In this document: one piece after another, positions 3,442 to 53,447 of the stretch | Layout of the letters: the number at the start of each line of letters is the position of its first letter | Numbering within the stretch: position 1 is the first letter of the stretch | Assembly: GCA_010015585.1 (NCBI GenBank) | Contig: ML975152.1 | DNA from: Eremomyces bilateralis CBS 781.70 | Taxonomy: Eukaryota | DNA: 64,000 nucleotides | Reading direction: 5' to 3' (one strand) | Program-made: the position numbers and the translations under genes | The notes under the pieces: model-generated | Seen by the model: the letters and a program-made list of their open reading frames with translations, nothing else | What the model was told of the DNA's origin: nothing | Database searches by the model: none

Positions 3442-5250
3442 TAACGCTGAGAATGGTGACGGGAGCAGTTGCTGCTTAAGAGTAACGTCTTCCAAACGAA
3501 CGATATTATCACAAGGCAAACAATGGCAATATTGTGGCCACGATTTCACCGCGGACTTTTGAGCTCTAGTGAGATCCTAACTAGGTAAGAAGATATAAAG
3601 TTGCTATCATGTCGGGTGCCGATATCGCTGGAATTGGCGGATTGCCTAGTTTACCCACACTTCTCCAGGTATTAATACCATATCTCCAGGTGTACTGAGT
3701 ACTCAACCGAAGGTTCCTAAGTTACCATACGTCCATACCATATGGAAGTGGGACATGGGGGACCATTTTTATTTCTCCCCATGGGCCGACCGAAGTTGAC
3801 CCGAACGGGCGCAGGAATCAATCAATCAATCATTTTTATTTTGGAGAACATCGTCACTTTGCAATGCTGAATGGTGCTGGAACCTCGTATCGTGAGTTGA
3901 TTTCTGCTGAATTGTTTATCCCAACAATACCACCCCAGAAACTGACCCTATAGCCCCCCAGCACGCTTGAATGGGACAGACTCTGCTCTGTGCTAATTAG
4001 GAAATACAGGATTGCGCGTGCTAGAGCGGAGTATCGTACTCTAGCGTAGATACCGTGATACGTACCGTTAGCGGATTACCAACGAGAATTTCCCCTCACC
4101 ACTCATCAGGATCCAATCGTTCCGATTTAGCTTGAGGTTTAAGTGAGCTATTGCTAGGATGTGAACGCCGGGCGAAGACGTCGCAGCTGTCAACGGAGCA
4201 AGCGACCAATTACCTCCCCCCATCATTACTAGTACACTGTGTATATGGATTGACTGTAGTACAGAATGCAGAGGCAAGGTCTCAAGAGGGAATGATTCGG
4301 CATACCGATCATGACTCGTTCATGCCTTGGATCTCGTGGTCCTAGCCTTTTGGTCGTTCCTCGTTTTGCTCGGCATGTGTTTTCGTCTTACTCCCATTTC
4401 TGGAATGTCTATAGAATAAGGTACCTTATGGAAACCTCTGAAGCACTCTGGGCATCACGACTTACATGCCCCAAAGCTTAGGCGAACGCCAGCAGATCTC
4501 AGCTAGCAGAAAATATCGCGAAGAGCATGGGATACTTCAGGAATCGGGATGTCGCCACTTACCAGACAGCACATCTTCGTTTTCAACAAGCTGCTGATGA
4601 TATTACATACCTCATCGAAAATAATCGGTCTGAGCAGTGAGCAGCACTTTTCATCGGCTGGGGCTACTGGAACAGACCCAGACCACGAGGTCTCAAAAAT
4701 TACCTAGCGAATCCGGGCTGCAGGTTGTTCCCTTATTTCCGGGTTTAAATCTTCCAGTTCAAGCCCACTATTTGAGCTTCAATTCGCTAGCCCTACAACA
4801 GGGAGCATGAATCGTTCCCGGCCAACATCGTGGGCCCCCCAGCAGTTCGCGGGGAATTGGGGATACGCTACCACCCGCTTTCCCTCTTTCACCTAGTCAC
4901 TCTCTACATCATGAATCACTATCCTGCCTGATGGAACTGAATATGTGCTTCATAAATGCACGCAATTCGTTGCCGACTTCGTGATGCTCAGGGGAGCTCC
5001 CCGCACAATCTAGACTTGGCATATCTGTAGACCTCCATACCCTCGGGTTTAAGATAGGTATCCAGACTTGCCTGGTGTCTGAGAAGCCATTCCCCGCTTA
5101 TGCTTATCGTATAAGTAACGACTTGACCTTTCCGGTGCCGCATTGAAGTCATTTTGGTTAACGCTTCATTCTTCCGTCCTTTCTAGTCAGTCCCAGTAAC
5201 TCTCTCTTGGTTTGACTTGGGATATTTTATTTGCTTCGTCGATCGCCATC

Positions 5251-7078
5251 ATGTCACAGGAGAACAAAGTCGACACTGATGTTAAGGATGATAAGGAAGC
5301 TCCACGGGTGATCGTGGAGGACCACGTGAAGGCGGCGACTGTGGACACGATCCATGGTGATGAGGCCATGAAGGTCCTGGCGAACTACCGCGGTGAGGAG
5401 ACTTGGACCGAAGAGGAGGAAAAGAAACTCAGGCGCAGAATCGATTTTAAGCTGATGCCCATCCTATGTATAACCTATGGCCTTCAGTTCTATGATAAAG
5501 CTATGCTATCTCAAGCCGTAAGACAATCGCGCTTTGGGTCCTTGTTAACCCACGAACCATCATGGCTGACAGATCCTTTAGGCGCTCTTTGGATTGCGAT
5601 CCGATTTGGATCTCAATGTTGGGGATCGATACTCCTTTTCCTCCGCCATCTTCTACTTGGGATTCATTGCCGGCTCCTATCCAGCCATTGTTATGGCGCA
5701 ACGATGGCCGATTGAGCGAGTTGCTGCTGCCATTGTCATCATCTGGGGCGGTTGTTTGCTGGCAACAATTGGCTGCACGACATGGAAACATCTCTACGTA
5801 CAGCGCTTCTTCCTAGGATTTCTCGAGTCAGGCATTTCTCCAATGTTCATGATGGTAGTTGGCGGTTCGTGAAATACCTAGAACTGATAAAAATCTCGGC
5901 AAAAGCTAACGGTAAGGATAGGATGGTATAAGAAGGATGAACAGGCATTGCGAATGGGTAAGTGCAGTCTATATAAAAGAAATATCTCCGTCTGATTGAC
6001 GGGCAAAGGTATGTGGTACTGCTGTACCGGTTACATCTCTATGGTGTCCCCTCTGATTAACTACGGACTGGGCCATATTAAGGGGGGTCGTTTGAGCTCA
6101 TGGCAGTACATGTACCTCGTTGCTGGTCTACTGACGGTGCAAGTTCAATCTTATTCCTTTAACATACATTGGGATGCCTGGCTAATGAGAATACTAGTAT
6201 CTGGGGAGTCTGCATCTTTTTCTTCCTGCCTCCGGATCCAGTTCGTGCTAAGGGCTTTAATGATCGCGAGCGATATATTGCCGTTGCGCGCATACGATCC
6301 AACAATACCGGCGTCCGAAACACCCATTATAAGTTCGACCAGGTCGTTGATGCGCTCACAGACATTAAATTTTGGATCATGTTCGCCATGGCTTTCTTGA
6401 TTATGATCGCGAACGGACCTGTGGCCACCTTCAGTCCTATCATAATCGCTGGTTTTGGCTATAGCACCCTTAACTCGTTACTCCTTACCATGCCAGCGGG
6501 AGCCATTATCGGTACGATCGAGTGGGTGGCTCCGTATATTGCTTATAAGGTCCCTAATACTCGAAGCTACATTGTTGTTGTATGCCAGGTCGGTACCATT
6601 ATTGCCAGCTTGTTGCTTTGGCTCCTGCCGCGCTCTCAAAAGGGCGGCCTCCTTTTCGGCGTTTTCATCCTGGCATCATTTGGAGGTGGCTATGCCGTCC
6701 AGATGGGTCAACAGATTGCCAACACCGCTGGGTATACCAAGCGAAGTGTCACTAGCTCAGGAATCTTCATAGGATATTGCTTAGGTAAGTTGGCTTCAAG
6801 ATACAGCTTCCGAGAACTTTGAATGTGCTAACAATGCCATTGCAGGCAACATTGTCGGACCTCTAGTTTTCAAGCCAAAGGATGCCCCAGCCTATGCCCC
6901 CGGATTCGTCGTTGTGCTGGTCACTTCCATCATCGCAGCAGTTCTGGCGATTCTCTATCGGTTTCTCTGCGTGTGGGAGAACAAGCGCCGGGACGCGGAA
7001 GGTGCCGAAGGATTTGAGCATGCTTATGACGATGACCTCACAGACCGGAAGAATCCGCAATTCCGGTACCAATTGTAG
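5251..7078 (+). CDS. MFS transporter, allantoate permease (DAL5-like, ACS family), multi-exon
   Basis: Motifs KLRRRIDFKLMPIL, QFYDKAMLSQA, RFFLGFLES, NTAGYTKR and C-terminal DDLTDRKNPQFRYQL*. Several GT-AG introns. Confidence 0.9.
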
Positions 7079-8132: not shown

Positions 8133-9542
8133 ATGGTCAGCAAGATGATGGCGACTGCTCTGGCAGTCAGCACTCTCTTGTCTACAACATCTGCTCGTTG
8201 AAGAAGCGAAATCAAGACCTCTCCCCCCCATGTGCATACCCTTATACTGCATTTGTCTACTCAGGGTGCTATGTCGACAGCGTTGATAGCAGATCCCTTC
8301 CGTTGATCGCTCCACTGGAATTCGACAATATGACCGTCGAAGCATGCACCTCTTTCTGCAAGGTAACTTAGCACTCTTCAACCATAGCCCACGGAAGTTC
8401 ATCAGATGTAGGGCAATAACTATCGATATGCTGGCCTCAAGTACTTCGGGCAATGCTTCTGCGGCGGCACTGTCCACAGTGCTGCTACACCAGAGTCAGA
8501 TTGCAATTTTCCTTGCAGAGGGGACGAGACTCAAGTATGCGGTGATACCGATCGTCTGTCCATCTACCAAGATCCAACTTTCCCTGATGCAGACGGGGTC
8601 GCTGAATCTACGGACTATATGTCCCTTGGGTGCTATACGGAAGGATCGCCGGGCCGTGCTCTTGCTGTATTCTAAGATCAGTTGGACAGTAGCCAAATGA
8701 CCACTGATCTCTGTTTATCCACCTGCGGCTATAAAGGATATCCGTTCGCCGGCACCGAGTGGTCTGGGGAGAGTTACTGCGGGACCGCGTTGGGGAATGG
8801 AACGAACCCAGTCGATGCGTCCCAATGTAACATGCCCTGCAATGGCAATCCTTCCGAAACGTGCGGAGGCAGTCGTCTGCTGAACGTATTGTGGCAAAGG
8901 GTATAGAATCAACTGACCCTTGCGAGGCTCCAGAGCCATCATCATCTACATCATCTACTACTATGAGAGTAAATAATCCAGCATTTTGAGTCGTCTTACT
9001 GACAGCTTTTGTTGGATGTCAACCACCGACATCCCCTCTGCTACTTATACTCCACCCCCTCCGCCGAGTAGCACGAAGACTACTACTCACATCCCAGCTC
9101 CTACGCCCTCGTGTCTTTGCGCCACTCCAGCCCCTTACGCTGGTACCAATGCCGTTGGCGGCTATCAGCTTCCTTGTGTCGGCTGCAATGACATGGGACC
9201 TAACCGCCACCAAAAGCCATTCAAGCTTTCAACGATAAGGACTTCGGAAGGTGTCCAAGTTATAAGAAAGATCGGCTCGAGGATGCATGCCAAGATGCCT
9301 GTACAACTCAGTACAAGTGGTGTATGAGCTACGCTTTCAGCTGCCTCGACCGCCGCAACCGGGACGCTCCTGAGAGCTTCACTATCGCCCAGAAGAGGTG
9401 TGGTGATCAGTACAAGGCATGCTGGTCGGCGAACAAAAATGTGAAATATGATGGTCGCTGTGATACGGACAAAGATGACAAGCCCTACACCAGGAGGGAG
9501 TGGTATGACTGGTGTAGGAATTGGTTGAATCTGTGGTTTTGA
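8133..9542 (+). pseudogene. Secreted tandem-WSC-domain protein, disrupted
   Basis: Signal-peptide-like start at 8133 and two WSC repeats (YSGCYVD..MTVEACTSFC..CFCG..CNFPC..CG; LGCYTEG..LCLSTC..FAGTEW..CNMPCNGNPSETCGG). Frameshift near 8195 and in-frame TAA at 8673-8675. Confidence 0.8.
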
Positions 9543-9756
9543 ACGGATGCCTGTATAACCCGATGCCAATACCACAAATACTTCTTACCTTAATCGTATT
9601 ACCATCTAATGCTTCAACACTAGAATTACGTGACTACTACTCATGCTGATGAGTGACTGTCTGGTGAACCGCTTGGAGAGGTGTTGGTGCCTATATTGAG
9701 CTCCCTTCAATTCGCTTTCTCTGACACCTTCCATTACTGTTTTTCTGCCACGTTGA

Positions 9757-11637
9757 TAGAGCTCGGCACGGATATACGGATACCGCGGATCATCCGCGAA
9801 TATGGCCTATCCGGATAGAAGAGGCTATCGAATCTCGTTAGAACTTTTTGCAAGTCCCTAAGCCAGGTCCATTCGTTTGAGGCTATTTCTAGGGATTGGA
9901 TCTCTGGGTGACCTTGACAAACTCTATTAGCTGCTTTTGAGAGCGAATAGCGTCGTCGATCATTCGGAATGTCGAGTTCCATCGAGTTGCAACATCATAT
10001 CGAATAAGGTTACTCGGGAGCTCGCATAGAGAGCAGAAGCGCTTCCAGTTCTGAATACGTTGTGGAGATCCTTGGATCCACAACGATAGGATCCGGATCT
10101 TCTCGATTGCTGAGTGTTCTACCGGCGGTCCAAGTCCGAATCGCAGTCGGTCGACATACTCTGCAGCCGCTTGGCGAGATCCACTGCGGAGATCCCCCAG
10201 TATATCCTTGACAATCAGATTCAGAATATGAGCAAGGCAGCGAACGAAGCTCTGAGAGCCGCGAAACCGAAAGGGGAGGTTGTCGCCGAGTGAAGGATCA
10301 GTTAGATCGGTAGAGGATGAACTGGGGCCGTATTCCGCAAGCAAGTGGCCATACAACTCGCTCACCATCACGTCGTTGCTTGAAGCGTTGTCCGCTGTTA
10401 CCGCTAGGAGCTTGCTGCTAATCTAAAGTTCTTGGAGAATCTCATATAGGATCTTTGCAAGATTCCCCCCGCTGTGCGTTCCTACAACGAACTTAGCACT
10501 AAATAAACTGATAACTATCAGTAAATAGACTTACCTTCAATCTCTGTAAACTTTAATACTCTCTCTTTAAACTCAAAGGTAGGGGTTAACCATGAACCGA
10601 TGATCGCCACTATCGAGATGCTGTTCGTGTTCGTCCAAGCGTCCGTAGACAGCGAGACAGTACTGCATGTGCTGGCCAACTCTGCAATAAGGGCTTCCCG
10701 GGATTCTAGGAACTACCTCTCAAGACTTCGCTTTACGCTTCTCGCGGAGCTCGTAGGATCTCGTGATGTTGCTGCTGCTCTTAGCATATTTCGGAAGGCC
10801 GGACTCTCTACGGAAGAGAATGCAATCTTATCAACAACGACCCATTTAAGGAGAGCTTCTTCGAAGGAATCCGCTACCGGATCTAAAGCCGAAGTCGAAG
10901 AGACCCAGCTAGCGAGGGAATTTGGTGGAACGAGCGAGGGTGTTGTTGAGCGCGAGTGATTGCGTGCGTTGTCGATAAATGGCGGGTAAGATTGCTCGTA
11001 GAACCCTACAAGAGGCCTTCGTTCGATGACCAGCGACATCCTGGCTTTATACAACAAACCAGTTTTGATCTGTTATCGGTTGAAAAGAAGGCCAGACCCA
11101 GCACTTATGCTTCTTCCTATTCCTGCCACCACGATTGATAGGCAACACGCTCCCTAGTGGTTGTTCTAGAGAATTATGAGAAATAGAATCTGCAGAATAC
11201 ATTAAACTATCCTGTGACACCGATGACGCCGTGATACTAAGATCTACCGGTTCTAGAACACTACCGTTGTACTCTGAGTTCTCCTCGTCTGTTCCGTCGT
11301 TTAGGTCATGATAGTTGAGTCGTAGGGCCCGAGGCTCTCGCTGGGAGAAGCTTAGAAAGGAACCTGGCGAAGACATTGGCGATATGTCCCTATATGTTGA
11401 TGCTTAAAGAGGCTGCAGGGCAATTAAAGAGATTTTTTACGGATAGCCTCAAGGGTTTCACGGAAATATTGGCGGATATATTTGCGGGTACGGATAATTA
11501 TCCGGATAGGAATTCTCTATCCGTGACCGGTGTATTTCACGGATCGAATACGGATACAAAGTTTCGCGGATCGGATATTATCCTAGTATGGCTGGTTGGG
11601 CTGGTGTATCCGTGAACTCGATCCGTGCCGAGCTCTA
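9757..11637 (-). mobile_element. hAT DNA transposon, internally deleted and inactivated
   Basis: Perfect 17-bp TIRs TAGAGCTCGGCACGGAT (9757-9773 and 11621-11637). Transposase motifs VTADNASSND, VRCLAHILNLIVKDIL and DVATRWNST. In-frame stops; subterminal CGGATA repeats. Confidence 0.92.
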
Positions 11638-26400: not shown

Positions 26401-29212
26401 CTACACACAAATCGGACCACTAGAAGAAGACGTGATGGCGAAGATAGCGGGGCCCACGTCTGATGGCGCTTTTTTCCAGAACTGCTGCTCCTGAAACTTT
26501 AGCACAGCCGAGTAGATATTCGTTGGCGGCATTGTCACTTCTTCTGCCTGTTCCGTGATTAGTAGAGCATCTGACAGGGTTGTCGGAAGTGATGACTCTG
26601 GAGTGAAGCTCCGCTTATGAATCAGTACTATTGAGTCATTCAATAGGGAATGGTAGAAGGGAACAACGGCATCGCGTTCGGCGAGGACTTCGAGGGCGCG
26701 CAAGTAGACGGCAAGTTTGTGGATTGGCGTGCCTGATAGTCGAAGAGAGCATCGGAGGAAGATATAGTTGATCGTCATAGGAACAAAGACACAGACAATT
26801 CTAGCCAGAGCATGTTAGCATCGCTCACGGAAGGGTATTTTCTTGGGTTGTACGCAGATTGGTATAAGGAAAACGCGGGGACGTACACTGAGACAGGGAG
26901 GTACTGCAGAGCATCCTTATCGAGCAGATCGGAGAGAATCGCCACTGTCAAAGTAGAGGACCCTTGGAGGGCTAGGTGAGAAGCGTCTCGCATTCTCGCA
27001 GCCCATATCGTAGAGCTAAGGCCTCTCTGAGCAGAGGCTGATTTGGTGAAGGGTGGAAGTGAGGTATCTGCAAGGATTTGTTAGAGTCGGATGGACGGAA
27101 GGGGTAGATGCGAAGGACATACTCGTAGGTCAGTCTCAAGTTGGCGAAGATGGCAAGGAGAGAATAGTAACTAGGGTCAGACTTTGGCGGATCGCTGCTG
27201 GTAAGCAATAATTGCGTATGGTTGGTCTGCCACTGTGCCAACAGCCCCTCACATTCCTCCAATTCACCCATGATTGATAACTTGCGGGGTTCGCCAAGCC
27301 ATCCAAGATACAATTTGGGCCCCATTAGAATGTGGCACAACGGATATGTAATGAGGGACAGATCAACCAGGGCCAGAAATATTTCGGAAAGCCTGCGTTT
27401 GACTTCAACGCTCAGGAACCATGGAAAGCGAGTATCTTCCTCGAGGTCCGAAGGTTGAAACGGCACCATTTTCACCAGCATTGCGGGATACAAATGCGCC
27501 CTGCGCAGACCCAGAATTTCCCACCGGACGCGCATGGAATAGCACGCTCGTAGGATATTCCATTGAGAGACCATACTTTTAGACTCGGCTGGTGATGAAT
27601 CGACGGGTGGCAGTCTGGCTTGCTGAAGCTGGTTGTGGGCTTCGAGCAGCCATTTCTCATCGTCAAACTCAGCTCGCGGATATATGCGCCCCTTGCTAAG
27701 TAAGAGGCAGATTCGAGCTTTATTCATAGGGTCTCGCTCGCATCCAGCCTCCAAAAGGGCCTATGAAGCGTCGGGGATCAGTACTTGGGTTTACACAGTG
27801 CGATCAGTGGCAAGAATCGGGAGCGTCCAAGGGTGCGGGGGGAAGATTGAACTGGGCGGCTTACAATAGTGTGGGTGTGAGGAGTTCTACGCATTACTAC
27901 AATGCTTGGGAATCCGGCGGCTTTCACGAGATCTTTTCTGCAACCTGCGTATACGATGATTAGCATATTGATATCGACTGCCAGTATTTTCCCGACATAC
28001 CGCACTAGCGGAAAACATAATAGCGTTGACCATGGCTAGACTCATTAGGCTAGTCGTTTCGCCGCCATTAGAGAGCAAAGGTTTTAACAGACTGTAAGTG
28101 TTCCATTCACTTATGACAGGGAAAATGGGATGAACATAGACAAAGTATAGGTTGATCAGTTCGCGCATGACGTCCTCCGTAGGAACTGAAAGGGCCTGTG
28201 AATTTACAACATCATGGTATGTAGGGCCACAGAGTGATGCCTTGCAGCAGAGAGCAATCCAGGAAACGGTGAAGGTAGTACAGGGATGTGTACAGGAGCA
28301 ATGATTATCCACCATGGCCACCGAGGGGTCTAGCTCAGTGGGTAATATGTTGACTAGAGAGCTCGAGTCAACTAGAGGGTTGGCTATAGGATTGGTGTCC
28401 ATCAAATCAAAATAGTTGTGGAAGTTGTAATCTGTGAATCCAGGAAAGTCATTAAAGAGTGTGGAATGATCTCCGAGATCAAGAAGAGGGGTATTTGGGT
28501 TCCTCCCCGGATCAGGCTTGCTTTGATCGTGCTGGAGCATGGTTGCGCCTGTGAGAGTGGTCATAGCTGTCCTACCCGACATACGTGCAGAGTAAGATGA
28601 GGCTGAAGGTGAGCATGGTGACGACTCTTCATCTGGCAATTCCTGGGAGGAGTTGAGACTTGGGTTGGACGGCGCAACCAGGTTCGGATAAGATGCAAAA
28701 AAGGCTTCCGCTAACCCAGACGAGGCGACTGGAGGCGGTAATCTAGTTGGTGAAGTACTATCGGCAAGCGAAACGTCAGGTAATAATGGAAACCTGTCCT
28801 GTCCGTTTGTGGGAGAGTTTTCATCTGCTATGGCCGAAGTGCGGCGGTTGTGATCCCTAGTCTTATTTCGTCTATGTGGATGGCTTAATATCGCTACGTG
28901 GACTGAGGAAGATGTACAAGGAACGGAATGAACCGACCTGCTGTAGGGAACACTACACTCAAACATCGTCCATTTGGCAGTTGGTGCAACTATCCGGATG
29001 TCGCAAGAGGACGTCGCAGCGCACCTTGCGGTTTCGGCACGACAGGCATGCTACACTATTAAGTCAGTCAAGTCCAAGTAGAATTTAGATTGCACGCTAG
29101 GAAATTCGCAGAATGATGCACTTTTGGCAGCGCGCCTTGAGCGACCTGGTTTTCGAGAGGAAATAGTTGATAACGCCATAACGGGGTGTTTGGGTGCACG
29201 CGCCCCCGACAT
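26401..29212 (-). pseudogene. Zn2Cys6 transcription factor (CTF1/FarB-like) with a frameshift in the zinc cluster
   Basis: After splicing: RRAAKTCLSCRNRKVRCDV..SCTNC. The sixth Cys (ECSVP) is in another frame. Fungal TF middle-region motif YFVYVHPIFPVISE is present. The 3' end is uncertain. Confidence 0.75.
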
Positions 29213-29277
29213 CGAAAGTTGAATCTATATTGTCCAGTCTTGAGGCGTCTTTGGTGAGTTGTCCCAGAGATTGTAAA

Positions 29278-29768
29278 TAGGGCTGGACACGAATAAGGAT
29301 TTTGGCTATTCGTATTCGACTTTTCCTCTTGAACGATTATTCGTATTCGACTAAGTTTTGAGACGTTTTATTCGTATTATTCGCGAATATTCGTAAATAA
29401 TGCCAAGACTTATTCGGCAAAAGCTGAGCCAATGAATGAATGCCCAGCAGTCGCGACTTTTGTTTACCCGAACACGATCTGGAGGATTTGAGCTCTAAGA
29501 GATACAAAGTATATCAATAGCGTCGAATTGATCACTCCTGACGATTCAGCAAGCCAAGTGACCCCAGCTCAAAGCTCTTTGTCGACCATCTCTCCGATGC
29601 GAGATACATGGAAATAGCTTCAGAGATAGACGAATAATTACGAATAATTACGAATAATGCGAATATTATTCGTACGAATATTAGTAAGCGGAAATTCTAA
29701 ATTTTATTCGTATTCGACTACGAATATTCGTACGAATACGAATAGTCGAATATTCGTGTCCAGCCCTA
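29278..29768. mobile_element. Non-autonomous hAT-type MITE (491 bp)
   Basis: 18-bp perfect TIRs TAGGGCTGGACACGAATA (29278-29295 and 29751-29768) and a perfect 8-bp TSD ATTGTAAA (29270-29277 and 29769-29776). Many internal TATTCG/CGAATA repeats. Confidence 0.95.
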
Positions 29769-30869
29769 ATTGTAAAGTCCTAGTTGTTGGGATTCAAATT
29801 GCGGATTATTTTAGATGTAGATTTTATAGTTAGATACAGAGACTTGTTCTTGAGGTTGGTTGGCATGGTTCTGTGTGGCTAACAAACGATATAACTATCG
29901 CTCGGATATACCATATCCCCTTGATGGCCGTCGCTGCAGGGCTCAACTTCCTCATCAAAACCTGTTTTCACCACCAAATTCGACTAACTTGCCCACACAA
30001 CCACTTAATTGCCTGGAATTTTTGGTCGGAAATGAAAGAAATTCATAAATAAAATGTAAAAGATCGTATTAAAAAAATAGTATGCTAGGGCGACGTTCTC
30101 CCGGCGGTCGAAGTATCGGCCACGGGGGTTAAAGCCCCTGGTAAGACACCCTGGTCTTTGAGCACTGCAGCCATCAAGGGGCTCGGGCGCGGAGCCCCGC
30201 AACATAACCCCCTCGCTATCACTTCCTAGCGACTCCGGGAAATGGTACACTGTAAATACCCCACGGCGGCCTGGGCATGCGACATACCTGTTCCTCGAGC
30301 AGTCAAGCGGAAGCCTTTCCCATTCCACAGCTCCAAGGTTATATAAATCCTCATTGGCATAGATATGGATTGTGCAAGTAGATCTGAAAGATTGTTCAGT
30401 AGCTACGTGCTAACTAGTGTTAGTTAGGAATAGTTTAGGAATAGTTACAACTTTTCAACAGGCGATTTGGACTTCCGAACAGGCGGATGGTGAACATAAC
30501 TAATATCCCGAAGCCGCTGCAAAGGTTCTGACTGCAGTGGAGGGTTTCTGCCAGGAATTATGGGCACCTGGAAATTGCGTTTTGTGTAATATTCGACAGC
30601 GTAGCGCGTTTTATTTGCCCATACCCAGTTAGCCAACCTAACCGCTAGATATTAGTTCATAAGCCGGCTAAATGCAGAGAGTTGACCTGAAAATCGTTTT
30701 CAGGTCAGGTTCGCCCGATTTCCAGCTCGTTAATTGGCTGATCTGTTAGCGTACCGTATAATTACAGAAACAAAATCACGTGTGCTTATCACGTGCCTTA
30801 AATTTGAAAATAAAAGAGGTATAGCGGCACCGCTTAATCAGCGGATTACAGCTGTCGAGCCTGATTTTC

Positions 30870-31130
30870 AGGTGTTCCACATATTCCTGGCAGAAACCCT
30901 CCAGTTCTCCTCGAAGCAGCCCATATACATCTGCTGCCGCCTTCTGCTTCCACTTCTCTGCCCACTCCCGTGCGACGTCACGCATCTTATCTGGTGGCGC
31001 AATCGCATCGACAATCCCATCTTTAAGTGCCTCTTTCCCAGTATAACGATGCCCCTCGAGCAGGACCTTGCGCGCCACTTGTGGAGCCAGCTTTGATTTC
31101 ATAAGCGACCCAATGCCCGCTGGCGGTTGC
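30870..31130 (-). pseudogene. C-terminal fragment of an enoyl-CoA hydratase/isomerase (crotonase)
   Basis: KLAPQVARKVLLEGHRYTGKEALKDGIVDAIA..VYGLLRGEL; the N-terminal part is absent. Confidence 0.7.
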
Positions 31131-31159
31131 AAAATGTGAGAGAACGCTTGGCGTTTTTT

Positions 31160-31414
31160 TGAGTGTGTGTGTCGCCGTCCAGGCTTTCGAGCAGATTGTT
31201 CCGGCATGTCAAGATGTCGCTTAAAAACTGCTGGTGGTTGACCTCATGTCCGGATTTTTTGTCACGGATGACAGACGTATTCTGGCGGACAGCAAGATTG
31301 TAAAGGGTTTGAGAAATGAGATCGAATGCCAGCACATTCGGGCCTTCCACTGGTGCAAAGAAATCGGAACAATCAAAATGCTCCTCGAAAGGGACTCTTA
31401 AACAAAGAGTCCAT
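31160..31414 (-). pseudogene. N-terminal fragment of an AMP-binding acyl-CoA ligase
   Basis: EGPNVL..VIRD..GHEVNHQQFLSDILTCRNNLLESLD resembles fungal acyl-CoA synthetase N-termini. Early stop; the rest is missing. Confidence 0.5.
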
Positions 31415-31894
31415 GGTGAAATATTTTGGAAATCGTCAATTCGCGAAACTGGTTGTTATTGACTTACTCAAATACAGTAACTATCCGGATTCCAGAAGCT
31501 TCAGAGTCGTTTGTCCGAGGGTCAGTGACTGGTGTCGCAACCGTTGGGCAGAGTGGTCAAAAATAACTCTATCATGTTTTGGTATGGCAATACGTATGCC
31601 TCGGGTAGAGTATAGAAATAGTATTGGTAATGTACAATTTCGCCGCAATGAGGGAATAGTACGAAGATAACGCGCTGTGACGCTTTAAGGGCATATTTTT
31701 ATATCGTTAAGGTGCTCTTGCTGTAAAGATGGCTAGCGCCTATTAATACTAACTATAATGGGCGTGGGATGTGAGTACTGCTAGTAGTATTGAATATACA
31801 CCACATTCAGACCATATCATTGATGACTTACTCATCCAGCTTTCGACAGCAAGACTTTGTTCAAGAGGTCAACGTGCTTCATTTGTTATCATAA

Positions 31895-32677
31895 CTATAG
31901 GCTGCCCCTAGCAGGTTCGATGTTGGCTAGGAAGTTCAAAAGACCTACGTTGAACGCTTGAGGTTGGTCAATGTTTGCCGCATGACCAGCGTCAGCTATA
32001 ACCAGCGTTTTGCACCCAGGAATTGTCCTACTCATATAGTCTGACCCCGCCAGAAATGGGGTATCATTGGCACCAACAACAACCAGTGACGGTACCTTGA
32101 TGTTGGGCAGGGACTTGATAACCGCAGGACTCTTTTGTATCAACATCCCTCTCCCCGCCAATGCCAATCCCTTTGCGTCTCGGTGCGTCGAAGTTTTCAT
32201 TTCTACGCTCATTTTCTCGAGACGGCGCAGCCCATGCTGTTCAAACCGCTCCGCCGTTTGAAGAGCATACTTATTCCATCCATCACGCGCTGCGTCATTC
32301 TTGAAGCCCGGGCCGGTGTCGATGATCAACAACGCCTTAACACGCTCAGGGTGAGCAAGGTAGAAAGCAAGCGACATGTATCCACCTAGTGACAAACCCC
32401 CGACGATGGCTCTCTTCGTTCCGCAGACTTCGGCCAGGATGGCTTCCATATCAGCCACCGTGTGCTGTTCGCTGTACATCGCCGGATCTTCCGGGTAGTC
32501 AGACTTGCCATGGCCGCGCATATCCCATAGGATAAGCTTGAATCTTGCCGAAAGCAGAGCTATCTGGCCAGACCACATTTCGGAGGTCGCGGAAAAGCCA
32601 TGGGAGAGGAGGAGCGGGGTTCCGCTACCGTACGTTGCGTAGTAAAGCGATACACCTGAACGGTTGATATATGGCAT
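31895..32677 (-). CDS. Alpha/beta hydrolase, intronless, bacterial-type (enol-lactonase/MenH-like fold)
   Basis: Motifs HGF, WDMRGHG, nucleophile GLSLGG, acid GANDTPF, and AGHAANIDQP. Intact 260-aa ORF. Confidence 0.92.
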   Translation of the reverse strand: MPYINRSGVSLYYATYGSGTPLLLSHGFSATSEMWSGQIALLSARFKLILWDMRGHGKSDYPEDPAMYSEQHTVADMEAILAEVCGTKRAIVGGLSLGGYMSLAFYLAHPERVKALLIIDTGPGFKNDAARDGWNKYALQTAERFEQHGLRRLEKMSVEMKTSTHRDAKGLALAGRGMLIQKSPAVIKSLPNIKVPSLVVVGANDTPFLAGSDYMSRTIPGCKTLVIADAGHAANIDQPQAFNVGLLNFLANIEPARGSL

Positions 32678-33544
32678 ATTTGATGCATCAAATGGCTGGA
32701 TATTTCAAATCGTGGAGTGAGAAGTGGAGTTGGACAGTTTCTTGCGTTTGGTAGTCAAAAGTGGTATCCATAAGGCACTGGGTGAGCGATGCGTGCCAGG
32801 ATTTGATGGGATAACTAACGTATACAAATCACGGGGTTGTTCAATTGCCCCCGAGGCAATGCACCAATTGATAGGGAAGAATATTTGCAAGGCCAGAAGT
32901 CCTCGGGACAACTGGCTATCGGCTCAAGGACGACACGGACAGGCAGAGGCTTCCCAGCGCCTGTTGTGTCCAGAGTTCTGTCTCAAGACGTCATGGCGCT
33001 TCAAAGGGCGCTTGGATGATTACCTCTTTCACTCATATTTATGCACGGTTCCTCTGTAGAATTACTCGGATTCAGGCACAATGACTGATTTTGTTGGAAA
33101 TCTCAAGCCCGCGCCAGCGCGCCCATGCTGACGGAGTGAAAGCCGTGGCCCGGGAGCGCCAACAAAAGTTCCAATGTCCCATTTTGGCAGATGAGCTAGC
33201 GGAGCGCTTTCGTGCGATATCCACATTGTAAAATATGCACGTTGTTCTCTCCCATCTTCTATGCAATATTTAAATCTCCTAAATCCCGATCATGAGCAAT
33301 TGAGCTATTATATGAATTGTGAATCGACTACTCTTCTCCTAGTAATTATGGAATGATGGTCTGCATTATCACAAGTCTGTTTGCGCTACCGTACTGGATG
33401 GAAATTTTAACATTTTAACCCATATGTTCACTATGGATACAATACACAACACGAACAAATATGAATTAAAAGTTCATGCTACTGTCTCCGACTACGCCTT
33501 GCCTCTGTAAACTTCCTGTTCTGGAATTTGACCACCATTGCGAC

Positions 33545-35345
33545 CTACATTTTGCTTGAAACCTACGGGCTTTCCGGGTAGTTTTTCCAGAGCTGACGAA
33601 CTCCGCGAAGAGTAGGTAGAATGAAGTTTATATCATTCATATCATTCTTGTAAACACGTTCCATGATTGCCTCGTATGGTATCTTGTCCTTTTTCGTGAA
33701 TGTGCTGTCAAGTTCGAATTCGGTGAATGAGTATGCATCCAGGATAGTATCGAGATAGCTATCAAAACCATAAATGACGTTTTCGAGTTCAAGGTGTAGG
33801 GCATCCACATCCCTTTTTGTGAGAAAGTTGGTACCGGCAAATGTGGAAAGGCCTTCTCGAATTGTACTCAGTGCGAACTAAATGGGAGAAATACCAACTA
33901 TCCGAGTAGTATAAGCATGAAGTCACTGATGCTTACCACTTGGAAAAGGGCTACGAGTGCCTCTTTCCCCTGTTCCGGTGCAAGTGAAAGCTGTGATTTG
34001 AATCTTCTCCAATAGCTGAGATCACTGTGAGCCATCGTAAACTCAAGACACTCGTAACTGGTATCTTTGCCTCTTGCAGCCTCTTCAAGGTGCCTTTCTG
34101 CAAGAAATGCAGCACGAAACTGGAGAACGACCTCTTGAACTTCGGGCTGAAGCCAGGATACAAACGATATTTCATACTTGCATACTCGATTACTCTCGTC
34201 TCTGGGCCATTTGGGGTGGTGTTTCCGAATTGGCGTCTGAACTGTACGCACTTGGCCGCGGCATATAGCGGCTTCATTACGTCAAGGTCTAGTTCATCAG
34301 CGAGCGTGCCCCGAATGATCACCATGGAAGCGGACGAATGCTTGTTTGACTTGGCTGCAGTGTAAGTTCCGTCATTTGACACAGAACTGGAGCCGGCAAA
34401 CATGTGAGACCTTGGAATCCTGGAGGTGTAAAACCCCATGATACCATTGTCAATGCCGCCCAGTGCTCCCAGTGCTCCCAGTGTCTTCTCGTCTTGGTCA
34501 TAGATTGTGATATTGGGCATGATCTCGTGAGTGTCGAGATCGTGAACTTGGACCATGATGAGATGGTTGCCATGCTCCTCCCCGTTAATGATGAGCCGTG
34601 CCACGACAATGGCGTGTGTTGACCAACACCGGAGAGCTCCAATCCAGAATTTGCTGCTCGAAATTGTAGGCGAGCGGAGGACAAATTCATCAGTGGTGGG
34701 GTGAAAGGTGGCGGTTGTTTCTATCCGGTGCAAGTTACTTCCATGGCCATCTCCGTTTGAGCGTAGGCTCCGATGATTTCAAAGCGATTGGCCTTAGGAA
34801 TCTAGTATGCTTGCTGTTGCGGACTTATCTGGGCTTCGAGATTCTTGATGAAAACTGTCATCTCCATCAATATAGACTCACAACCACGAAAGAATGGAAA
34901 CTGTATACTTCTAAACTGGCCATAGCAAGGAACATCACCAACCATGCGTCCTGCTTCCAAAAAATTCTCCCTGCTCCACCTCTTTTGAAACCATACATTG
35001 ATCAACTCTTTTGCTTGTTGGGCTCTATAGCCGAAGTAATCTTTCCTTGCCAGGGCATGGAGATTGACGTTCTTGCGGAAAGTTGGGTGGTCGGCCAAAC
35101 TCTCCAAGATTTCGCATCGCCGCTTAAGCCGGTCTTCGCCCCAAATAAACTTGGCCAAAGGTCCAGTATTTGGCATATCAACGTTGGCCATGTCGAGTTG
35201 ATGGAGATAAAGACCTCCAGAATAGATTCAAGGACGCCCCTGGAGAGGATTCCAATTCCAATGCAGCGGCGATTGTTATCCTGTGTTGAGGTCTTAGGTC
35301 ATCTTGACTTAAATGACTAGTGCCATTTCGTGGATCCTCTTCCAT
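33545..35345 (-). pseudogene. Peroxisomal acyl-CoA oxidase pseudogene
   Basis: YAQTE(M/G)HGSN..IETTATF is split by a frameshift near 34747. Also SKFWIG, HAIVVARLII, IDNG, RRQFG. Multiple frame breaks; terminal SKM* at 33545-33556. Start codon uncertain. Confidence 0.85.
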
Positions 35346-37077: not shown

Positions 37078-38399
37078 TTAGAACGCGCCGTTAGCCCCAA
37101 GACCTTCCGACTTGCCATTCTCATGCCCGTTCGCAGTACCGATAGCATGGCCATTCGCCCCCAGTCGTTCCAGTCTCTGGCTCAAACTCTCACTCCTTTC
37201 TGGGTCCCAGAACGGACGCTCTCCATAGACCGCAGTTCGCTTCCCTTCCCGTAGCGTGACGTCGTAGCCACCAGGAATGGCGCGATGGACCACCGAGCGG
37301 TTGTCCCAGAACGCGACGGATCCTGGAGTCCACTTCCATCGCACCGTGAGATCATTAGCTTGAAGGAGGTGTTCGCGGAGGAAGGCGAGAATGTGGTGTG
37401 ACTCTTGGCCGTTTAGCTCCTCAATCCGCTCGATAAAGGTAGGGTTATAGTTTAACACTTTGAGTAGAGTTACTGGGTGCGTTCGGACCTATCATCATCA
37501 TTAATCTGGTCCTAAACGAAAGTTGAAGTTCGTACCAGGGGATGTGCAGTTGCAATTGGAGCTCTGTGAGGTGAGCCACCACCATTGATAGATGCAACAT
37601 ATGCCCGCTGCACACAGTCAACGCTGTAATGCCACTGCTAGGGTCGACTCAAGTCAAATGCTTACATCCGAAGAATGAATACCATGTAGGCCCTCGAACG
37701 CCTTTTGAAATGTTGGGCTGAGTTTGTCAAACAGAGCAGTTTGGCTAGTAAAAATGGTGTCGCCTCCATATGGCGGAGTCTTAACCAAGCGCAATAACGT
37801 GTAGGATGGCGGATTGACCTCAAAAGAATGGTCCGCATGATACTCGCCCCCGGAGTGGCCATGGGCGCGGATATTTCTAGATAGAGTCAGTCGAGGCATT
37901 TCGCTGGCCTTGAAATTGGACGTACCCTCCGCGTCCAATAATGGTCACATGGTTTGGATCTTGCTGATTTGGGTCTCTATCTTGCTATAAGATATCAGCC
38001 ATGGCACTCGGCATGGAAAGGCACGTATCCTACAATGCCATAATGGGCCGCCAGCGCATGTTGCTGCTCCAGAGTAATATCTTGATCCCGGAGTAAGACC
38101 ACACCCCGCTGTTCACTATTAGCATGATATCCGGATACCAAAAGGGATACAAAGAATACCTCAGCAACGAGTAGAGCTAGCTCATCCTTCTGCTGGTCGG
38201 TCAACTGGCTCAATTGGATTCCTTTCAGCTCTGTTCCGATGTATGGAGTAAGGTCCTCGGCTGCTGATGCTGCAGAGAGAAGCGACCTCTTCTCCGTGTC
38301 AGCGAAAAAGGCCCTATCCTTGGCAGGAGTGAACTCTTTGAGAGGAGGGTCAGGTGGCGAATACGCCAATAGAGCTGGAGTGATGGTGTTCTGAACCAT
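37078..38399 (-). CDS. TauD/TfdA family alpha-ketoglutarate-dependent sulfonate dioxygenase (Jlp1-like), multi-exon
   Basis: Motifs DLTPYIGTELKGIQL, DELALLVA, HxD (YHADHSFE), GGDTIF, HP.VR.HPVT, FWDNRSVVHRA. Confidence 0.92.
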
Positions 38400-39221
38400 G
38401 GTAGCAGTGGAATGTGCTCAAACAGTGGGTGTATAGTGTATACTGAACAGTTTTGGATTTTTGACGGGAAATGGAACACCTTTGACAAAGAAAATAGATG
38501 CCGAGACTCCTCGGGAGTGCTATAGATCATAGATAGTAACCTCGTATTTGTCATTTCTGCGTTGTCAATTCATCAAGGGCGGCCAAATCGTAGAGGAGCT
38601 ATCAGTCATCCAGGAAATATTTCCCTTAAGGCCTCCTAACGCCTTGGTTTGATTCGCCATTACAGAGTCATATCATGTCATCACTTGATATGTACGATGA
38701 TCACGACATCACGTCGTAAAACAAGTAAAACAAGGCACTTATCCCATCTGAAGAAGCTAAAATTGTTGCTTAGAATTGAAAGCAATGAATCGTGAGTAAC
38801 GAGTGAGGTGAGAGGCAAGAATCTACTACGTAAACCCCTGTTGGAGTATTGAACTATTCCTATTCCGGATGCCCACATCTCGGGCCGACACATGTCTGAT
38901 TACTACTCTAGATAAGGAATCCATCTCTACTCTTTAGCTGAGCATCTTGCGACATATCACGCCTAAGCTCCCATGACTAATTGAACAGTCAAGAGTGCCA
39001 TGTGGTTGCATATCGGATAGCTAATAGGATTATGGATTGGATGAGGGATCAGAGGAGTTACCCCACCTCGTAAACACCCTGGCAGTGGTCGGCCGTCCGA
39101 ACTCTGGCCATATTTGAATTACTCACTCACGAGAAACAATAACAATGTCCCCTTAGGAGTGAACATCAAGAATCAAACGAAGCGTATCAAACAAGAACCG
39201 TCCAAATTCGAATCCTTCACA

Positions 39222-50218: not shown

Positions 50219-51441
50219 ATGGCGCTTGACACGTTCTTCCACAACAAGATCGAGAGCATGAAGCTCGAGATCATCCAAGGCCAATCCAAGCTGCGGCGAT
50301 TAGAAGCACAACGGAACGACTACAACTCAAGAGTGCGGTTATTGCGGGAAGAACTTGGCCTCCTTCAGCAGCCGGGTTCGTATGTCGGAGAGGTTGTCAA
50401 GGTCATGGGGACGAAGAAGGTGCTCGTCAAAGTGCATCCAGAAGGCAAATATGGTATGAAGCGTCGGGGAACCCTATCGCCATTGCAAATGCTAAGTTCA
50501 GCCTAGTCGTCGATATTGCTGATTCGGTCGACATCTCGAAGTTAACCGCGGGCAAACGAGTCACGCTGTTGAGCGACTCCTACAAGCTCGAGAAGATGCT
50601 GCCTTCGTCGGTCGATCCTCTTGTTTCCCTCATGATGGTCGAAAAGGTCCCTGACAGCACATACGACATGATCGGAGGATTGGATCAACAGATCAAGGAG
50701 ATCAAGGAGGTGATTGAGCTGGGTCTGAAACATCCCGAACTGTTCGAATCCCTGGGTATCGCTCAACCGAAGGGTGTGCTGTTGTACGGACCTCCCGGAA
50801 CCGGCAAAACCCTCCTCGCTCGTGCCGTTGCGCATCACACCGACTGCAAGTTCATCCGAGTGAGTGGCTCAGAGTTGGTTCAGAAGTACATCGGTGAAGG
50901 AAGCCGTATGGTTCGAGAGCTATTTATCATGGCACGAGAGCATGCACCTAGCATCATCTTCATGGACGAAATCGACTCAATAGGATCCTCACGAGTAGAA
51001 GGATCATCGGGTGGCGACTCGGAAGTTCAACGGACGATGTTGGAGCTACTGAACCAACTGGATGGATTCGAGCCGACCAAAAACATCAAGATCATCATGG
51101 CGACGAATCGTCTCGACATCCTTGACCCAGCATTGTTGCGTCCGGGACGGATAGACCGCAAGATTGAATTCCCTCCACCAAGCGTCGAAGCGCGAGCAGA
51201 CATCCTTCGAATCCACTCGCGGAAGATGAACCTGACCCGTGGCATCGATCTCAAGAAGATCGCGGACAAGATGAACGGCTGCTCGGGGGCGGAGCTGAAG
51301 GGCGTGTGCACGGAAGCAGGCATGTATGCACTGAGGGAACGGAGGGTGCACGTTACGCAGGAAGATTTCGATTTGGCTACCGCGAAGATTCTCAACAAGC
51401 ACGACGACAAGGATACCTCGCTCAAGAAGCTCTGGAAGTAG
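50219..51441 (+). CDS. RPT6: 26S proteasome regulatory ATPase subunit Rpt6
   Basis: Motifs [51 protein letters not shown]. Intron ~50454-50506. Confidence 0.97.
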
Positions 51442-52148
51442 TCTCCTGCCGGACATATTTGGGTGCGGTCAACGTTATGAGCGTTGTGGCAGCCAGTCTC
51501 TGTATGTGTAGTTACCGGTTCATTGCATGGCGAATGGGCGCTTGGTCAATTCTGATAGAGCACTGCTTCTGGGTATAATGGCACGGTAAAACTAAGTAGT
51601 AATTACCATATCTTATATGCTCATAACGTCGTAATCTATGACTCTACGCTAGTAATAAATCTATAGGTATCATTATATCTGCCATTTCTCTTGTTTATGT
51701 GGTAGGATATTCTTCCTGATGAAAACACCACAGTCAAAGTGTCATTCGATCCGAAGTGGCGAAGCTCACGAAACCACCACAGTTTGATATCAACCTAACC
51801 CGTCACACATCAGCTTTGATATCGATCAAGATTTAATGGGGTACATTTTCTTATTAGGGACGTGCTTTTAACCATTTATACAGACAGGCAGTCGCTCCGC
51901 AAGGACATTTGCACTCGCCCTCGGGGTTTTCCACACTTCCGTGCGCAGTAGAGAAATCGAATATTTAAAGAGCTGGGAATCAGGAATACATCTTGCAAAC
52001 TTGTATCAACGAACTTCCCAAATTTGTCAAGGCCACCGTACGTCCTAGGAATCTGAGAAGCCATAATCTTTTCATCCTCTTTTAAAATTTCCTCCGCTCC
52101 CCACTTCTGGTCTAACACGAAGACATTTCCCTGCGGGTTTCACCCGAA

Positions 52149-53447
52149 ATGGACGACATAGGGGGCGGATCAATCCTCCTCATCCTCAACGTGCCCGAAG
52201 GCTCCCTAATCGGTATCAACCTCCTCTCCTTCACCACCACCCCCCGCTTCCACGGCATCAAGCACCTCCCCCCCGGTTTCCACTTCGTCTTCACCAGCGT
52301 CTCCAACACGCAGTCGATCCGCCAGGGCGTGTGGGTCGAAGTCCCCCGATCCGGATCCCGCGCCATCTCGCAATACGGCCCGCACATAATCTTGAAAAAA
52401 TGGGACCCTACCACCGAAAGCCTTGTGGACGAAACCTCCGACTCTGAACGCCTTCGCCACCGCGCGAACCTCGGCGCCATCTGGCGCGAGGGGCTGGTGC
52501 CGTATCTGCAGAGCGCGGACACCGCGGACGAGGAGGCGCAGGAGCAGGGGAAGGAGGAGTGGGCACAGATGACAACGCATGTGTCCGCGAGGCTGCTGGA
52601 CCGGGTGTTGGGGGAAAGGACGTGGGCGCTCAACTCGGCGAGCACGGCGCCGACGGACGCGGAGAAAATTCCCGGGATATCAGCGGAAGAGCATCAGGAG
52701 AAGGAGTTGGGGTTTTTGGTCGTTGATTTGCGGAGGACGTGGAAGGAGGATGCGACGGGGCGGGAGAGGACGGAGGCGGCGAGGGATCGGAGTTGGGCGT
52801 TGGGGGAGGCGGTGGAGAAGCATTGTTGGGGGAGTTGGGACGAGGTGGTGGGGGAGATGGAGGTGGCGTTTCTTATGGTGATGACGCTGAATAACTACTC
52901 GTGCTTGGAACAGTGGAAGAGACTCTTGGAGCTGGCGATGACGAGCAAGGCGGCGGTGAAGGATCACCCGGGGTTCTTTGTGGATGTGATGGAGATGCTT
53001 AGGTTGCAACTCGAGAAGAGCAGGAATGTTGAAGGCGGTGGGCTGTTCGATTTGTCGGATGATGGAGCGCCATTCCTTAAAGATTTGCTAAAGAAGTTCA
53101 GGAGGGGGTTGGATGATCTGGATGGGAAGGCGAAGGCGGACGTCTTGGATGAGCTGGATGAGCTGGAGCACTACCTCAAGGAAGTCCACAAATGGGAGAT
53201 CGATGCACCGTTTCTCCGGACGGGCATTTTGGAGCTCGAAGACGGCGAGACGGTCGAGATGGATGCAATGGGCAGGGATGACGAGGACGAAGAAGGCGAA
53301 TATGCCCCTCAAATAGTCGAGCTTACAGCAGAGCAAGCCAATGCTCTCGGTCACGATCACCAAGCCAAGAAATCGGAGGACGAGCTAGCACTCGCCGAGG
53401 AAGAAGAGGAAGAGCAAGACCTTGAAGAAATGGATGCGAGGTTTTGA
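52149..53447 (+). CDS. AAR2: U5 snRNP assembly factor Aar2
   Basis: Motifs LIGINLLSF..FHGIKHLPPGFHFV, RTEAARDRSWAL, GEMEVAFL, LEQWKRLL, acidic tail. Confidence 0.88.
   Translation: MDDIGGGSILLILNVPEGSLIGINLLSFTTTPRFHGIKHLPPGFHFVFTSVSNTQSIRQGVWVEVPRSGSRAISQYGPHIILKKWDPTTESLVDETSDSERLRHRANLGAIWREGLVPYLQSADTADEEAQEQGKEEWAQMTTHVSARLLDRVLGERTWALNSASTAPTDAEKIPGISAEEHQEKELGFLVVDLRRTWKEDATGRERTEAARDRSWALGEAVEKHCWGSWDEVVGEMEVAFLMVMTLNNYSCLEQWKRLLELAMTSKAAVKDHPGFFVDVMEMLRLQLEKSRNVEGGGLFDLSDDGAPFLKDLLKKFRRGLDDLDGKAKADVLDELDELEHYLKEVHKWEIDAPFLRTGILELEDGETVEMDAMGRDDEDEEGEYAPQIVELTAEQANALGHDHQAKKSEDELALAEEEEEEQDLEEMDARF

Follow-up and report, generated by a model that had tools for sequence, protein, structure and literature searches.

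Bacterium-to-fungus transfers of metabolic enzymes are common. The gene considered here is one candidate, an alpha/beta-hydrolase gene at 31895..32677 (minus strand) in a stretch of 64,000 nucleotides from Eremomyces bilateralis CBS 781.70 (GenBank assembly GCA_010015585.1, contig ML975152.1), referred to below as the window. A fungal hydrolase of this kind has been described before: CLAIMM_05933 of Cladophialophora immunda was labelled a beta-ketoadipate enol-lactone hydrolase (ELH) in 2017 and stated, from HGTfinder (qT = 1.47e-10), to be 'of bacterial origin'; a BLAST distance tree accompanies this claim, which concerns one species (PMC5595782). On a wider scale, a survey of 750 fungal genomes puts the number of bacterium-to-fungus transferred genes at 20,093 (PMC11708051); six locus tags were sought in three of its supplement files and none was present, a result that is uninformative, as the identifiers used there may differ. 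A further system of relevance is the AK-toxin cluster of Alternaria alternata, in which an acyl-CoA ligase (AKT1), a hydrolase (AKT2) and an enoyl-CoA hydratase (AKT3), ending in SKI>, SKL> and PKL>, respectively, are all peroxisomal (PMC9104257).

The evidence set out below indicates that the window gene is, with good probability, fungal and functional and encodes a small serine hydrolase, and that its ancestor was acquired once from a bacterium and has since been inherited in ascomycetes. An initial annotation, made from the window sequence alone, had proposed horizontal transfer of an intronless bacterial hydrolase that was retained while its neighbours decayed. Bacterial origin and the absence of contamination were both upheld. 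The transfer proved, however, to be neither specific to this genome, as the fungal clade spans 15 species and the composition of the gene is ameliorated, nor new, as CLAIMM_05933 had already been reported.

Structure, transcript and chromosomal setting of the gene

The hydrolase open reading frame (ORF) lies on the minus strand and consists of an ATG start, 260 uninterrupted codons and a stop. This intron-free coding sequence is supported by the ORF itself, a Pfam match, a contig of run X3 and a structure model generated with AlphaFold (AF2). Three public sequencing runs cover the region. Runs X1 and X2 are DNA from the same sample; run X3, which is recorded as a guess at RNA only, was treated as RNA-derived because its contigs are spliced, with joints that are absent from X1 and X2. 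One X3 contig (record 18, 882 nt) is colinear with the window over 31906-32761, with zero joints across the hydrolase gene, and spans the ORF except for its final 11 nt, together with a 5' untranslated leader of at least 84 nt (32678..32761, minus strand). The gene is therefore both unspliced and transcribed. These results agree with the initial description of a compact, intact, intronless ORF of 260 amino acids, the translation of which contains all four of the sequence runs quoted at the time, and the RNA-derived contig supplies the sign of expression that the same annotation had suggested looking for.

The hydrolase gene is physically part of the fungal chromosome. Eukaryote-only genes are present in the window, namely AAR2 (52116-53447), for which the closest atlas clusters are from Ascomycota, and a proteasome-type AAA ATPase gene (50230-51441). 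A single 34.7-kb contig of DNA run X1 (record 8) extends from 31143 to past 40000 at a constant depth of 161.5, passing through the hydrolase gene and its neighbours. In the neighbouring genes, 13 GT..AG joints of 47-104 nt were seen in X3 only and in neither of the DNA runs (three in a putative transcription-factor gene, one in an acyl-CoA oxidase-like gene, five in a TauD gene and four elsewhere). The initial claim that the flanks are fungal and speak against contamination is borne out by AAR2, the AAA ATPase and these joints. The sole point in favour of bacterial contamination or a chimeric assembly is the bacterial-like protein sequence of the hydrolase, against which it was found that DNA contig and depth run on from the hydrolase into intron-bearing genes, that the GC content at third codon positions (GC3) of the hydrolase is fungal, that the protein ends in a fungal-type C-terminal tail, and that the gene sits on a contig of 1.59 Mb. 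As one DNA contig links the hydrolase to spliced genes and its GC3 is fungal, contamination was therefore excluded as far as contigs can show, its probability being negligible.

With respect to composition, the hydrolase ORF has a GC content of 0.53 and a GC3 of 0.579, the latter lying among the values for host coding pieces (0.47-0.75, n = 11), and is far from its bacterial homologs (GC 0.64-0.70 and GC3 0.79-0.94, n = 7). Relative synonymous codon usage did not discriminate between the two, the correlation being 0.34 to host exons and 0.31 to Bradyrhizobium orthologs, with a scatter of -0.16 to 0.61 among the host exons themselves. The host-like, fully ameliorated GC3 therefore points to an old transfer and not to a recent arrival.

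Relatives and origin of the hydrolase

A search of 5.8 billion proteins returned 7954 matches among 8000 scored candidates, the best 120 of which were listed. After the protein itself, the closest listed match was P0002 (75% identity), the other listed matches being 63-70% identical. Twelve listed matches carried an organism name; ten were from Alphaproteobacteria or Proteobacteria (Caulobacteraceae, Rhizomicrobium, Phenylobacterium) and two from fungi (Cladophialophora immunda, 65%, and Aspergillus nanangensis, 68%). Profile searches with fungal members returned many Bradyrhizobium homologs, with 64-66% full-length identity, and added the fungi C. psammophila, C. chaetospira, Fonsecaea monophora, F. 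erecta, F. multimorphosa, Exophiala xenobiotica, E. sideris, E. mesophila, Cercospora beticola, Septoria linicola and Verruconis gallopava, while a cluster look-up added Aulographum hederae and Coniosporium uncinatum. Fungal homologs were found in at least 15 named species, all of them Eurotiomycetes or Dothideomycetes, with the class checked for four of the 15.

Among prokaryote contigs representing one genome per species, 438 of 498 pattern matches encode relatives, and the best 80 of these are 55-68% identical and come mostly from Alphaproteobacteria but also from Gemmatimonadota, Binatota, Actinomycetota, Acidobacteriota and Myxococcota. Clustering at 50% reduces the whole subfamily to very few representatives, with only 176 representatives reaching an E value of 1e-30, and the ten nearest atlas clusters listed are 91-100% bacterial. 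The identity of the fungal proteins to alphaproteobacterial ones (63-68%) is similar to that among the fungal proteins themselves across fungal orders (59-69%). Full-length alphaproteobacterial affinity, which the initial annotation had proposed, was thus recovered at 63-70%, with Bradyrhizobium at 64-66%.

A scan of metagenomes gave 569 relatives among 598 matches, and among the best 80, which were kept, L127 was the only eukaryote-like locus. This contig (1-11431, GC 0.48) encodes the hydrolase as a single ORF of 264 amino acids (9488-10279) that is 61% identical to the window protein and lies downstream of a short-chain dehydrogenase/reductase (SDR) gene; the same contig also carries genes for a HET-domain protein (5119-6870) and a Vps4-like AAA ATPase. 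L127 is independent evidence for the hydrolase family in genomes of filamentous ascomycetes. Co-transfer of the SDR gene with the hydrolase was considered and rejected, as identity between the SDR of L127 and those encoded beside bacterial homologs is no higher than 23-28%.

Phylogenies were built with FastTree from 348 and then 392 rows, proteins outside 240-310/320 amino acids being left out, and all named fungi fell together with the window protein in one clade of 30 and then 44 tips, the latter with a support of 94 and zero named bacteria inside. A more careful IQ-TREE analysis was performed under LG+C20+F+G4 by posterior mean site frequencies (PMSF) with 89 rows, comprising 33 eukaryote-like rows, 48 bacterial loci and eight distant representatives; the 48 were taken from 80 bacterial loci for taxonomic spread, with 32 dropped, and the protein P0169 was also dropped. 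In this tree, the 33-row fungal clade, which carries tails like the type 1 peroxisomal targeting signal (PTS1), had a support of 100/99 and was joined at 98/95 with 14 Nitrobacteraceae (Bradyrhizobium, Nitrobacter) and a Gemmatimonas metagenome-assembled genome (MAG), L007. Caulobacterales, Rhizomicrobium, Acidobacteriota, Binatota and others were placed outside this group, and the distant representatives rooted far away. Within the fungal clade, one subclade of 17 rows, supported at 99/85, has Chaetothyriales for all its named members. The 'Bradyrhizobium-like' affinity of the initial annotation therefore held, in a family that is otherwise bacterial. As a result that would speak against transfer, the same annotation had named orthologues distributed broadly in fungi, following the species tree and not nesting within a bacterial clade; orthologues do occur in many fungi, but in the free tree they sit within bacterial diversity. 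Since the fungal homologs come from 15 species of two classes and form one clade, the transfer is old and not genome-specific.

Nesting of the fungal clade was also seen in a 96-row tree (Shimodaira-Hasegawa-like approximate likelihood ratio test support of 99), from which REP_P0246 had been dropped (branch length 4.23). In this quick tree, three compositionally odd marine alphaproteobacterial rows (L030, L042 and L070) appeared inside the fungal clade, a placement that was rejected as a search artefact: a tree uniting the 37 eukaryote-like rows improved on the free one by 29.3 log-likelihood (lnL) units, with a p value in the approximately unbiased (AU) test (p-AU) of 0.906, and the careful tree places the trio elsewhere. 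FastTree had suggested Aulographum P0243, which is 45% identical to the window protein, as a separate basal fungal lineage; this too was rejected, as the protein lies within the fungal clade, on a long branch, in the 96-row tree under a site-heterogeneous model.

Some individual records deserve mention. L007 sits with the Nitrobacteraceae and the fungal clade, apart from other phyla, and L009, from an 'uncultured Rhizobium' MAG, is nearly identical to Rhizomicrobium sequences (branch length 0.013); both placements could reflect transfers between bacteria or mis-binned contigs. The A. nanangensis model P0095 has 249 amino acids and stops early (...EEC), without the tail of all other clade members, and P0169, one of the models for E. 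xenobiotica, has 303 amino acids and an aberrant N-terminus; these look like gene-model errors in public records. P0292, a transcript of the dinoflagellate Alexandrium catenella, encodes a distant homolog that is 38% identical, sits on a very long branch and ends in -SKL; it may reflect either a separate uptake by a eukaryote, with a peroxisomal tag of its own, or a contaminated transcriptome. As the one distant representative with this ending, it had been followed as a lead to Alternaria AKT2 and was rejected as such, being a dinoflagellate transcript and no Alternaria protein.

The donor of the fungal gene would most likely have been an alphaproteobacterium related to Nitrobacteraceae (Bradyrhizobium/Nitrobacter), and the recipient an early member of the filamentous ascomycetes. 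The gene would then have descended, perhaps with some exchange between fungi, through the Eurotiomycetes and Dothideomycetes. Several observations weigh against this account of its origin. The bootstrap of the careful tree was incompletely settled (correlation 0.978), and the fungal clade consists mostly of metagenome or Logan proteins, anchored by 15 species names only. The backbone of the fungal clade lacks resolution and shows no clear match to the species tree. Finally, the AU test does not reject a tree with the 48 ingroup bacterial rows (plus two representatives) as one clade and the fungi outside it, this non-nested tree costing 11.8 lnL units (p-AU 0.144). It is therefore only the branch support that argues for a Nitrobacteraceae-like donor and for strict nesting.

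The same AU result is what would be used to argue for vertical descent, according to which an ancient eukaryotic gene, or one from the mitochondrial ancestor, was lost nearly everywhere and kept in some ascomycetes. The age of the fungal clade, which covers two classes, fits this explanation, as does the existence of eukaryotic copies beyond one tight group, namely the divergent Aulographum protein and the dinoflagellate -SKL homolog. It was nevertheless judged improbable. The identity between fungal and alphaproteobacterial proteins equals that between fungal orders, the free maximum-likelihood tree joins the fungi to one derived alphaproteobacterial family (98/95), the informative outgroups look bacterial (Rokubacteria by name, for example), all ten of the nearest atlas clusters listed are predominantly bacterial, and Aulographum falls within the fungal clade under the site-heterogeneous model.

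At the other extreme, a recent transfer confined to this genome or its close kin would account for the bacterial-like stretches kept in the window protein, such as GANDTPFLA and GHAANIDQP, and for the best bacterial matches (68-70%) outscoring the fungal orthologs of other orders. The careful tree, however, places the window protein inside the single fungal clade, where it groups with P0002 (100/93), then with A. nanangensis (99/85) and then with P0003 (100/99). Furthermore, the protein has the fungal C-terminal extension, which is missing in most bacterial homologs, and the composition of the gene is indistinguishable from that of host exons. A recent transfer is thus very unlikely, even more so than vertical descent.

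An old, single acquisition from a bacterium is compatible with two histories within the fungi, as the poorly resolved backbone means that vertical descent after the transfer and later spread from fungus to fungus cannot be told apart. Fungus-to-fungus transfers, in place of vertical descent with many losses, are a possible but not the favoured course of events. In their favour, Eurotiomycetes and Dothideomycetes are found side by side in each of the two main fungal subclades, Cercospora and Septoria lie near Exophiala and Verruconis near the group of the window protein and Aspergillus, and only one Aspergillus species is found among the named matches listed. Conversely, the deep branches within the clade are weakly supported or collapsed, absence cannot be scored from the best 120 matches listed, and early duplication followed by differential loss predicts an identical picture.

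Predicted enzyme and neighbouring genes

The hydrolase matches the Pfam family Abhydrolase_1 (PF00561) with 93 bits (E 3e-26, gathering cut-off 25.8), and Abhydrolase_6 and Hydrolase_4 also match. The AF2 model of the protein, with a predicted local distance difference test (pLDDT) score of 91.1 and a predicted template modelling (pTM) score of 0.91, has the canonical order of strands and helices and a helical cap at residues 128-188. In this model, the putative nucleophile Ser96 (codon 32390..32392, minus strand) stands in the G-x-S-x-G elbow GLSLG between strand 90-95 and helix 97-108, the putative triad acid Asp205 (32063..32065, minus strand) lies in the loop following strand 197-202, and the putative triad base His232 (31982..31984, minus strand) lies in the loop following strand 223-227. 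Asp205 is taken to be the triad acid from the canonical alpha/beta-hydrolase topology, in which acid and histidine follow strands 7 and 8. Each of the three is conserved without exception in the clade (33 of 33 members). The best folds retrieved with Foldseek were the esterase TtEst (4uhh) and PcaD (2xua), with a template modelling (TM) score of 0.83 each, as well as Est816, at identities of 25-29%. With profile match, nucleophile elbow and modelled fold all in place, the product of the ORF is, as judged from the model, an alpha/beta-hydrolase with a Ser96-Asp205-His232 triad.

Catalysis would proceed through Ser96 as the nucleophile, His232 as the base and Asp205 as the acid, with an oxyanion hole probably formed by the HG motif (His26-Gly27) and Leu97, and the predicted class of substrate is a small ester, lactone or thioester. 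The enzyme is accordingly described, on the strength of the model, as a putative Ser-His-Asp esterase, lactonase or thioesterase with a helical cap that acts on a small substrate. Counting against a closer assignment, no curated NCBIfam enzyme model was reached: pcaD scored best, with 107.3 bits where the cut-off is 255.85, while menH (104.6/208.55), bioH (64.9/206.95) and RutD (64.6/238.5) also remained below their cut-offs. Among the 12 bacterial loci examined, the neighbourhoods vary, five having an enoyl-CoA hydratase, acyl-CoA dehydrogenase or acyl-CoA ligase gene within 3 kb, three an SDR gene and two a dienelactone hydrolase gene. The window hydrolase itself lies between an acyl-CoA oxidase (ACOX)-like gene and a remnant of an enoyl-CoA hydratase/isomerase (ECH) gene. 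Gene context therefore offers a weak hint of acyl-CoA chemistry, though the association is not conserved in L127, the one locus available for comparison.

In a Pfam scan of 17 ORF pieces between 21.7 and 41.9 kb, the recognised neighbours were a Na/Ca exchanger, a tyrosinase, the ECH remnant, the ACOX-like gene, TauD and a sugar transporter; the remaining pieces scanned in this interval, that of the putative transcription factor included, matched no Pfam family. The transcription-factor gene has three introns (27067-27999) that are spliced out in X3 contigs. The gene for the TauD/TfdA-family dioxygenase (37078-38417, minus strand) has five introns of 47-58 nt (37486-38160), all of them confirmed by X3, and is a good example of an intact gene that seems 'broken' in raw sequence.

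The ECH remnant, downstream of the hydrolase (30776..31243, minus strand), comprises 155 codons and retains the C-terminal half only, with homology at about 30928-31129 that covers no more than positions 131-197 of the 251 in the Pfam profile ECH_1 (E 1.4e-9). No N-terminal half was recognised by eye among the neighbouring ORFs of at least 30 amino acids, of which only 31099-31455 was scanned with Pfam. It is a genuine remnant. It abuts an element resembling a miniature inverted-repeat transposable element (MITE) at 30538..30903 (strand not assigned), which is 366 bp long with perfect 21-nt terminal inverted repeats (I2), the ECH homology ending about 25 nt from the element. The DNA contig depth of this element is 747-1287, compared with about 160-240 for single-copy sequence, and loose ends occur at 30538 and 30903. 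A second MITE-like element of about 497 bp (29275..29771, strand not assigned) is present in very high copy, with a summed word depth of up to 13,424 in X1 and 48,515 in X2, and is bounded by the inverted pair I3 (21 nt, 95%). The DNA contigs of X1 and X2 break at the ends of both elements.

The ACOX-like gene, upstream of the hydrolase (33566..35227, minus strand), is supported by Pfam and an X3 joint and has at least one intron, of 54 nt (34855-34908; joint 34854->34909, CT..AC ends). Its first kilobase is transcribed and spliced. Pfam coverage extends over positions 4-109 of 120 in Acyl-CoA_ox_N, 3-88 of 169 in ACOX_C_alpha1 and 84-164 of 181 in ACOX, which leaves about 164 profile positions of the C-terminal domains unaccounted for in a space for about 64 codons. 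X3 is neutral on the 3' part of the gene, as its contigs cover little of 33076-33509 and none of 33510-33943. The ACOX-like gene may be partly degenerate, either as a transcribed pseudogene or as a shortened variant. The initial picture of a gene set 'among broken genes' thus holds for the ECH remnant, fails for the transcription-factor and TauD genes, the introns of which are spliced in X3, and is uncertain for the ACOX-like gene. Likewise, retention of the hydrolase 'while its neighbours decayed' applies to ECH and possibly to the ACOX-like gene, and not to the other neighbours, which are intron-bearing and spliced. Fungal genes that are split by introns may appear 'broken' when read from sequence only, and this trap has been corrected here.

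C-terminal tail and comparison with known systems

What sets the fungal proteins apart from most of their bacterial homologs is a short extension at the C-terminus, which ends in a peroxisomal-type tripeptide. In the 44-member fungal clade, these tripeptides are AKL (13), ARL (7), ASL (6), ALL (4), SRL (4) and SKL (2), with a few variants. The canonical PTS1 consensus is [SAC][KRH][LM]. This pattern was found in 26 of 44 proteins of the fungal clade and in one of 307 outside it, and a relaxed pattern in 43 of 44 and 13 of 307, respectively. The window protein ends in -GSL (31898..31906, minus strand), a degenerate PTS1-like tail that is unique to it among the proteins compared. Of its nearest relatives, P0002 ends in -GRL and P0003 and P0036 in -SRL; the hydrolase of L127 ends in -AKI.

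It is proposed that the C-terminal extension, with its final PTS1-type tripeptide, was added to the fungal copies once the transfer had taken place, and that it would direct import into the peroxisome. In this genome, the tail would then have drifted to -GSL, while the adjacent beta-oxidation-type genes (ACOX-like and ECH) degenerated. Given this tail and the degenerate ACOX-like and ECH genes, the enzyme of E. bilateralis may be poorly imported or cytosolic. A more extended history can be offered tentatively, as one possibility among others: a cytosolic bacterial hydrolase became peroxisomal through PTS1 and was, in some lineages, recruited beside ACOX and ECH, and the window represents a late stage, in which these partners are decaying, a MITE has entered ECH and the tail has passed from -SRL (P0003, P0036) through -GRL (P0002) to -GSL, with the catalytic core intact and the gene expressed. 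Two observations count against a peroxisomal role here: the -GSL tail does not fit canonical PTS1, and neither ACOX nor ECH is found beside the hydrolase in L127, the one other fungal locus. The link to the peroxisome and to beta-oxidation is therefore weak for this genome. If the extended history were true, it would be a clean and datable example of a transferred gene whose product was redirected to an organelle. The fungal-only peroxisomal-type tail offers a simple way to test how an enzyme of foreign origin is adapted to a compartment of the eukaryotic cell. The systematic gain of such tails in the fungal clade, together with their apparent erosion in this genome, would be modestly new; in the library searched, the literature on PTS1 and horizontal transfer in fungi yielded nothing on this hydrolase family.

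Among characterised enzymes, PcaD (TIGR02427; 2xua, Burkholderia xenovorans) shares the fold and length of the window hydrolase, with a TM score of 0.83, and is the best-scoring NCBIfam model. The window hydrolase is, however, only 25% identical to it and scores 107.3 bits against the required 255.85, so that it is no equivalog; none of the 17 ORF pieces compared with Pfam in the interval from 21.7 to 41.9 kb was recognised as a pca or cat gene. TtEst (4uhc/4uhh) and Est816 (5egn), an esterase that degrades N-acyl-homoserine lactones, are the top matches among solved structures in both sequence and fold. With identities of 26-29% and an origin in unrelated bacteria (Thermogutta, for TtEst) or metagenomes, they permit no inference on the substrate.

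The AKT cluster of Alternaria resembles the setting of the window gene in that a filamentous ascomycete has the gene for a PTS1-tagged hydrolase next to those for an enoyl-CoA hydratase and other acyl-CoA enzymes. In the window, by comparison, only a remnant of ECH is left and the tail of the hydrolase has degenerated, and the resemblance would appear to be one of architecture only.

CLAIMM_05933, which corresponds to P0074, is 65% identical to the window protein and belongs to the same orthologous clade, and the same bacterial origin was inferred for it. Homology is the only basis of its ELH label, and the main text of that report (PMC5595782) contains the stem 'peroxisom' zero times. As such transfers are common and this family had already been flagged in a black yeast, the transfer as such is a solid example but an ordinary one. 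What is added here is that the event is old and common to two ascomycete classes, that a likely donor group can be named with its statistical limit stated, and that the fungal copies, unlike the bacterial ones, bear a peroxisomal-type tail. Relative to the single species of the earlier report, the clade now spans 15 named species, adjoins the Nitrobacteraceae and carries PTS1-like tails.

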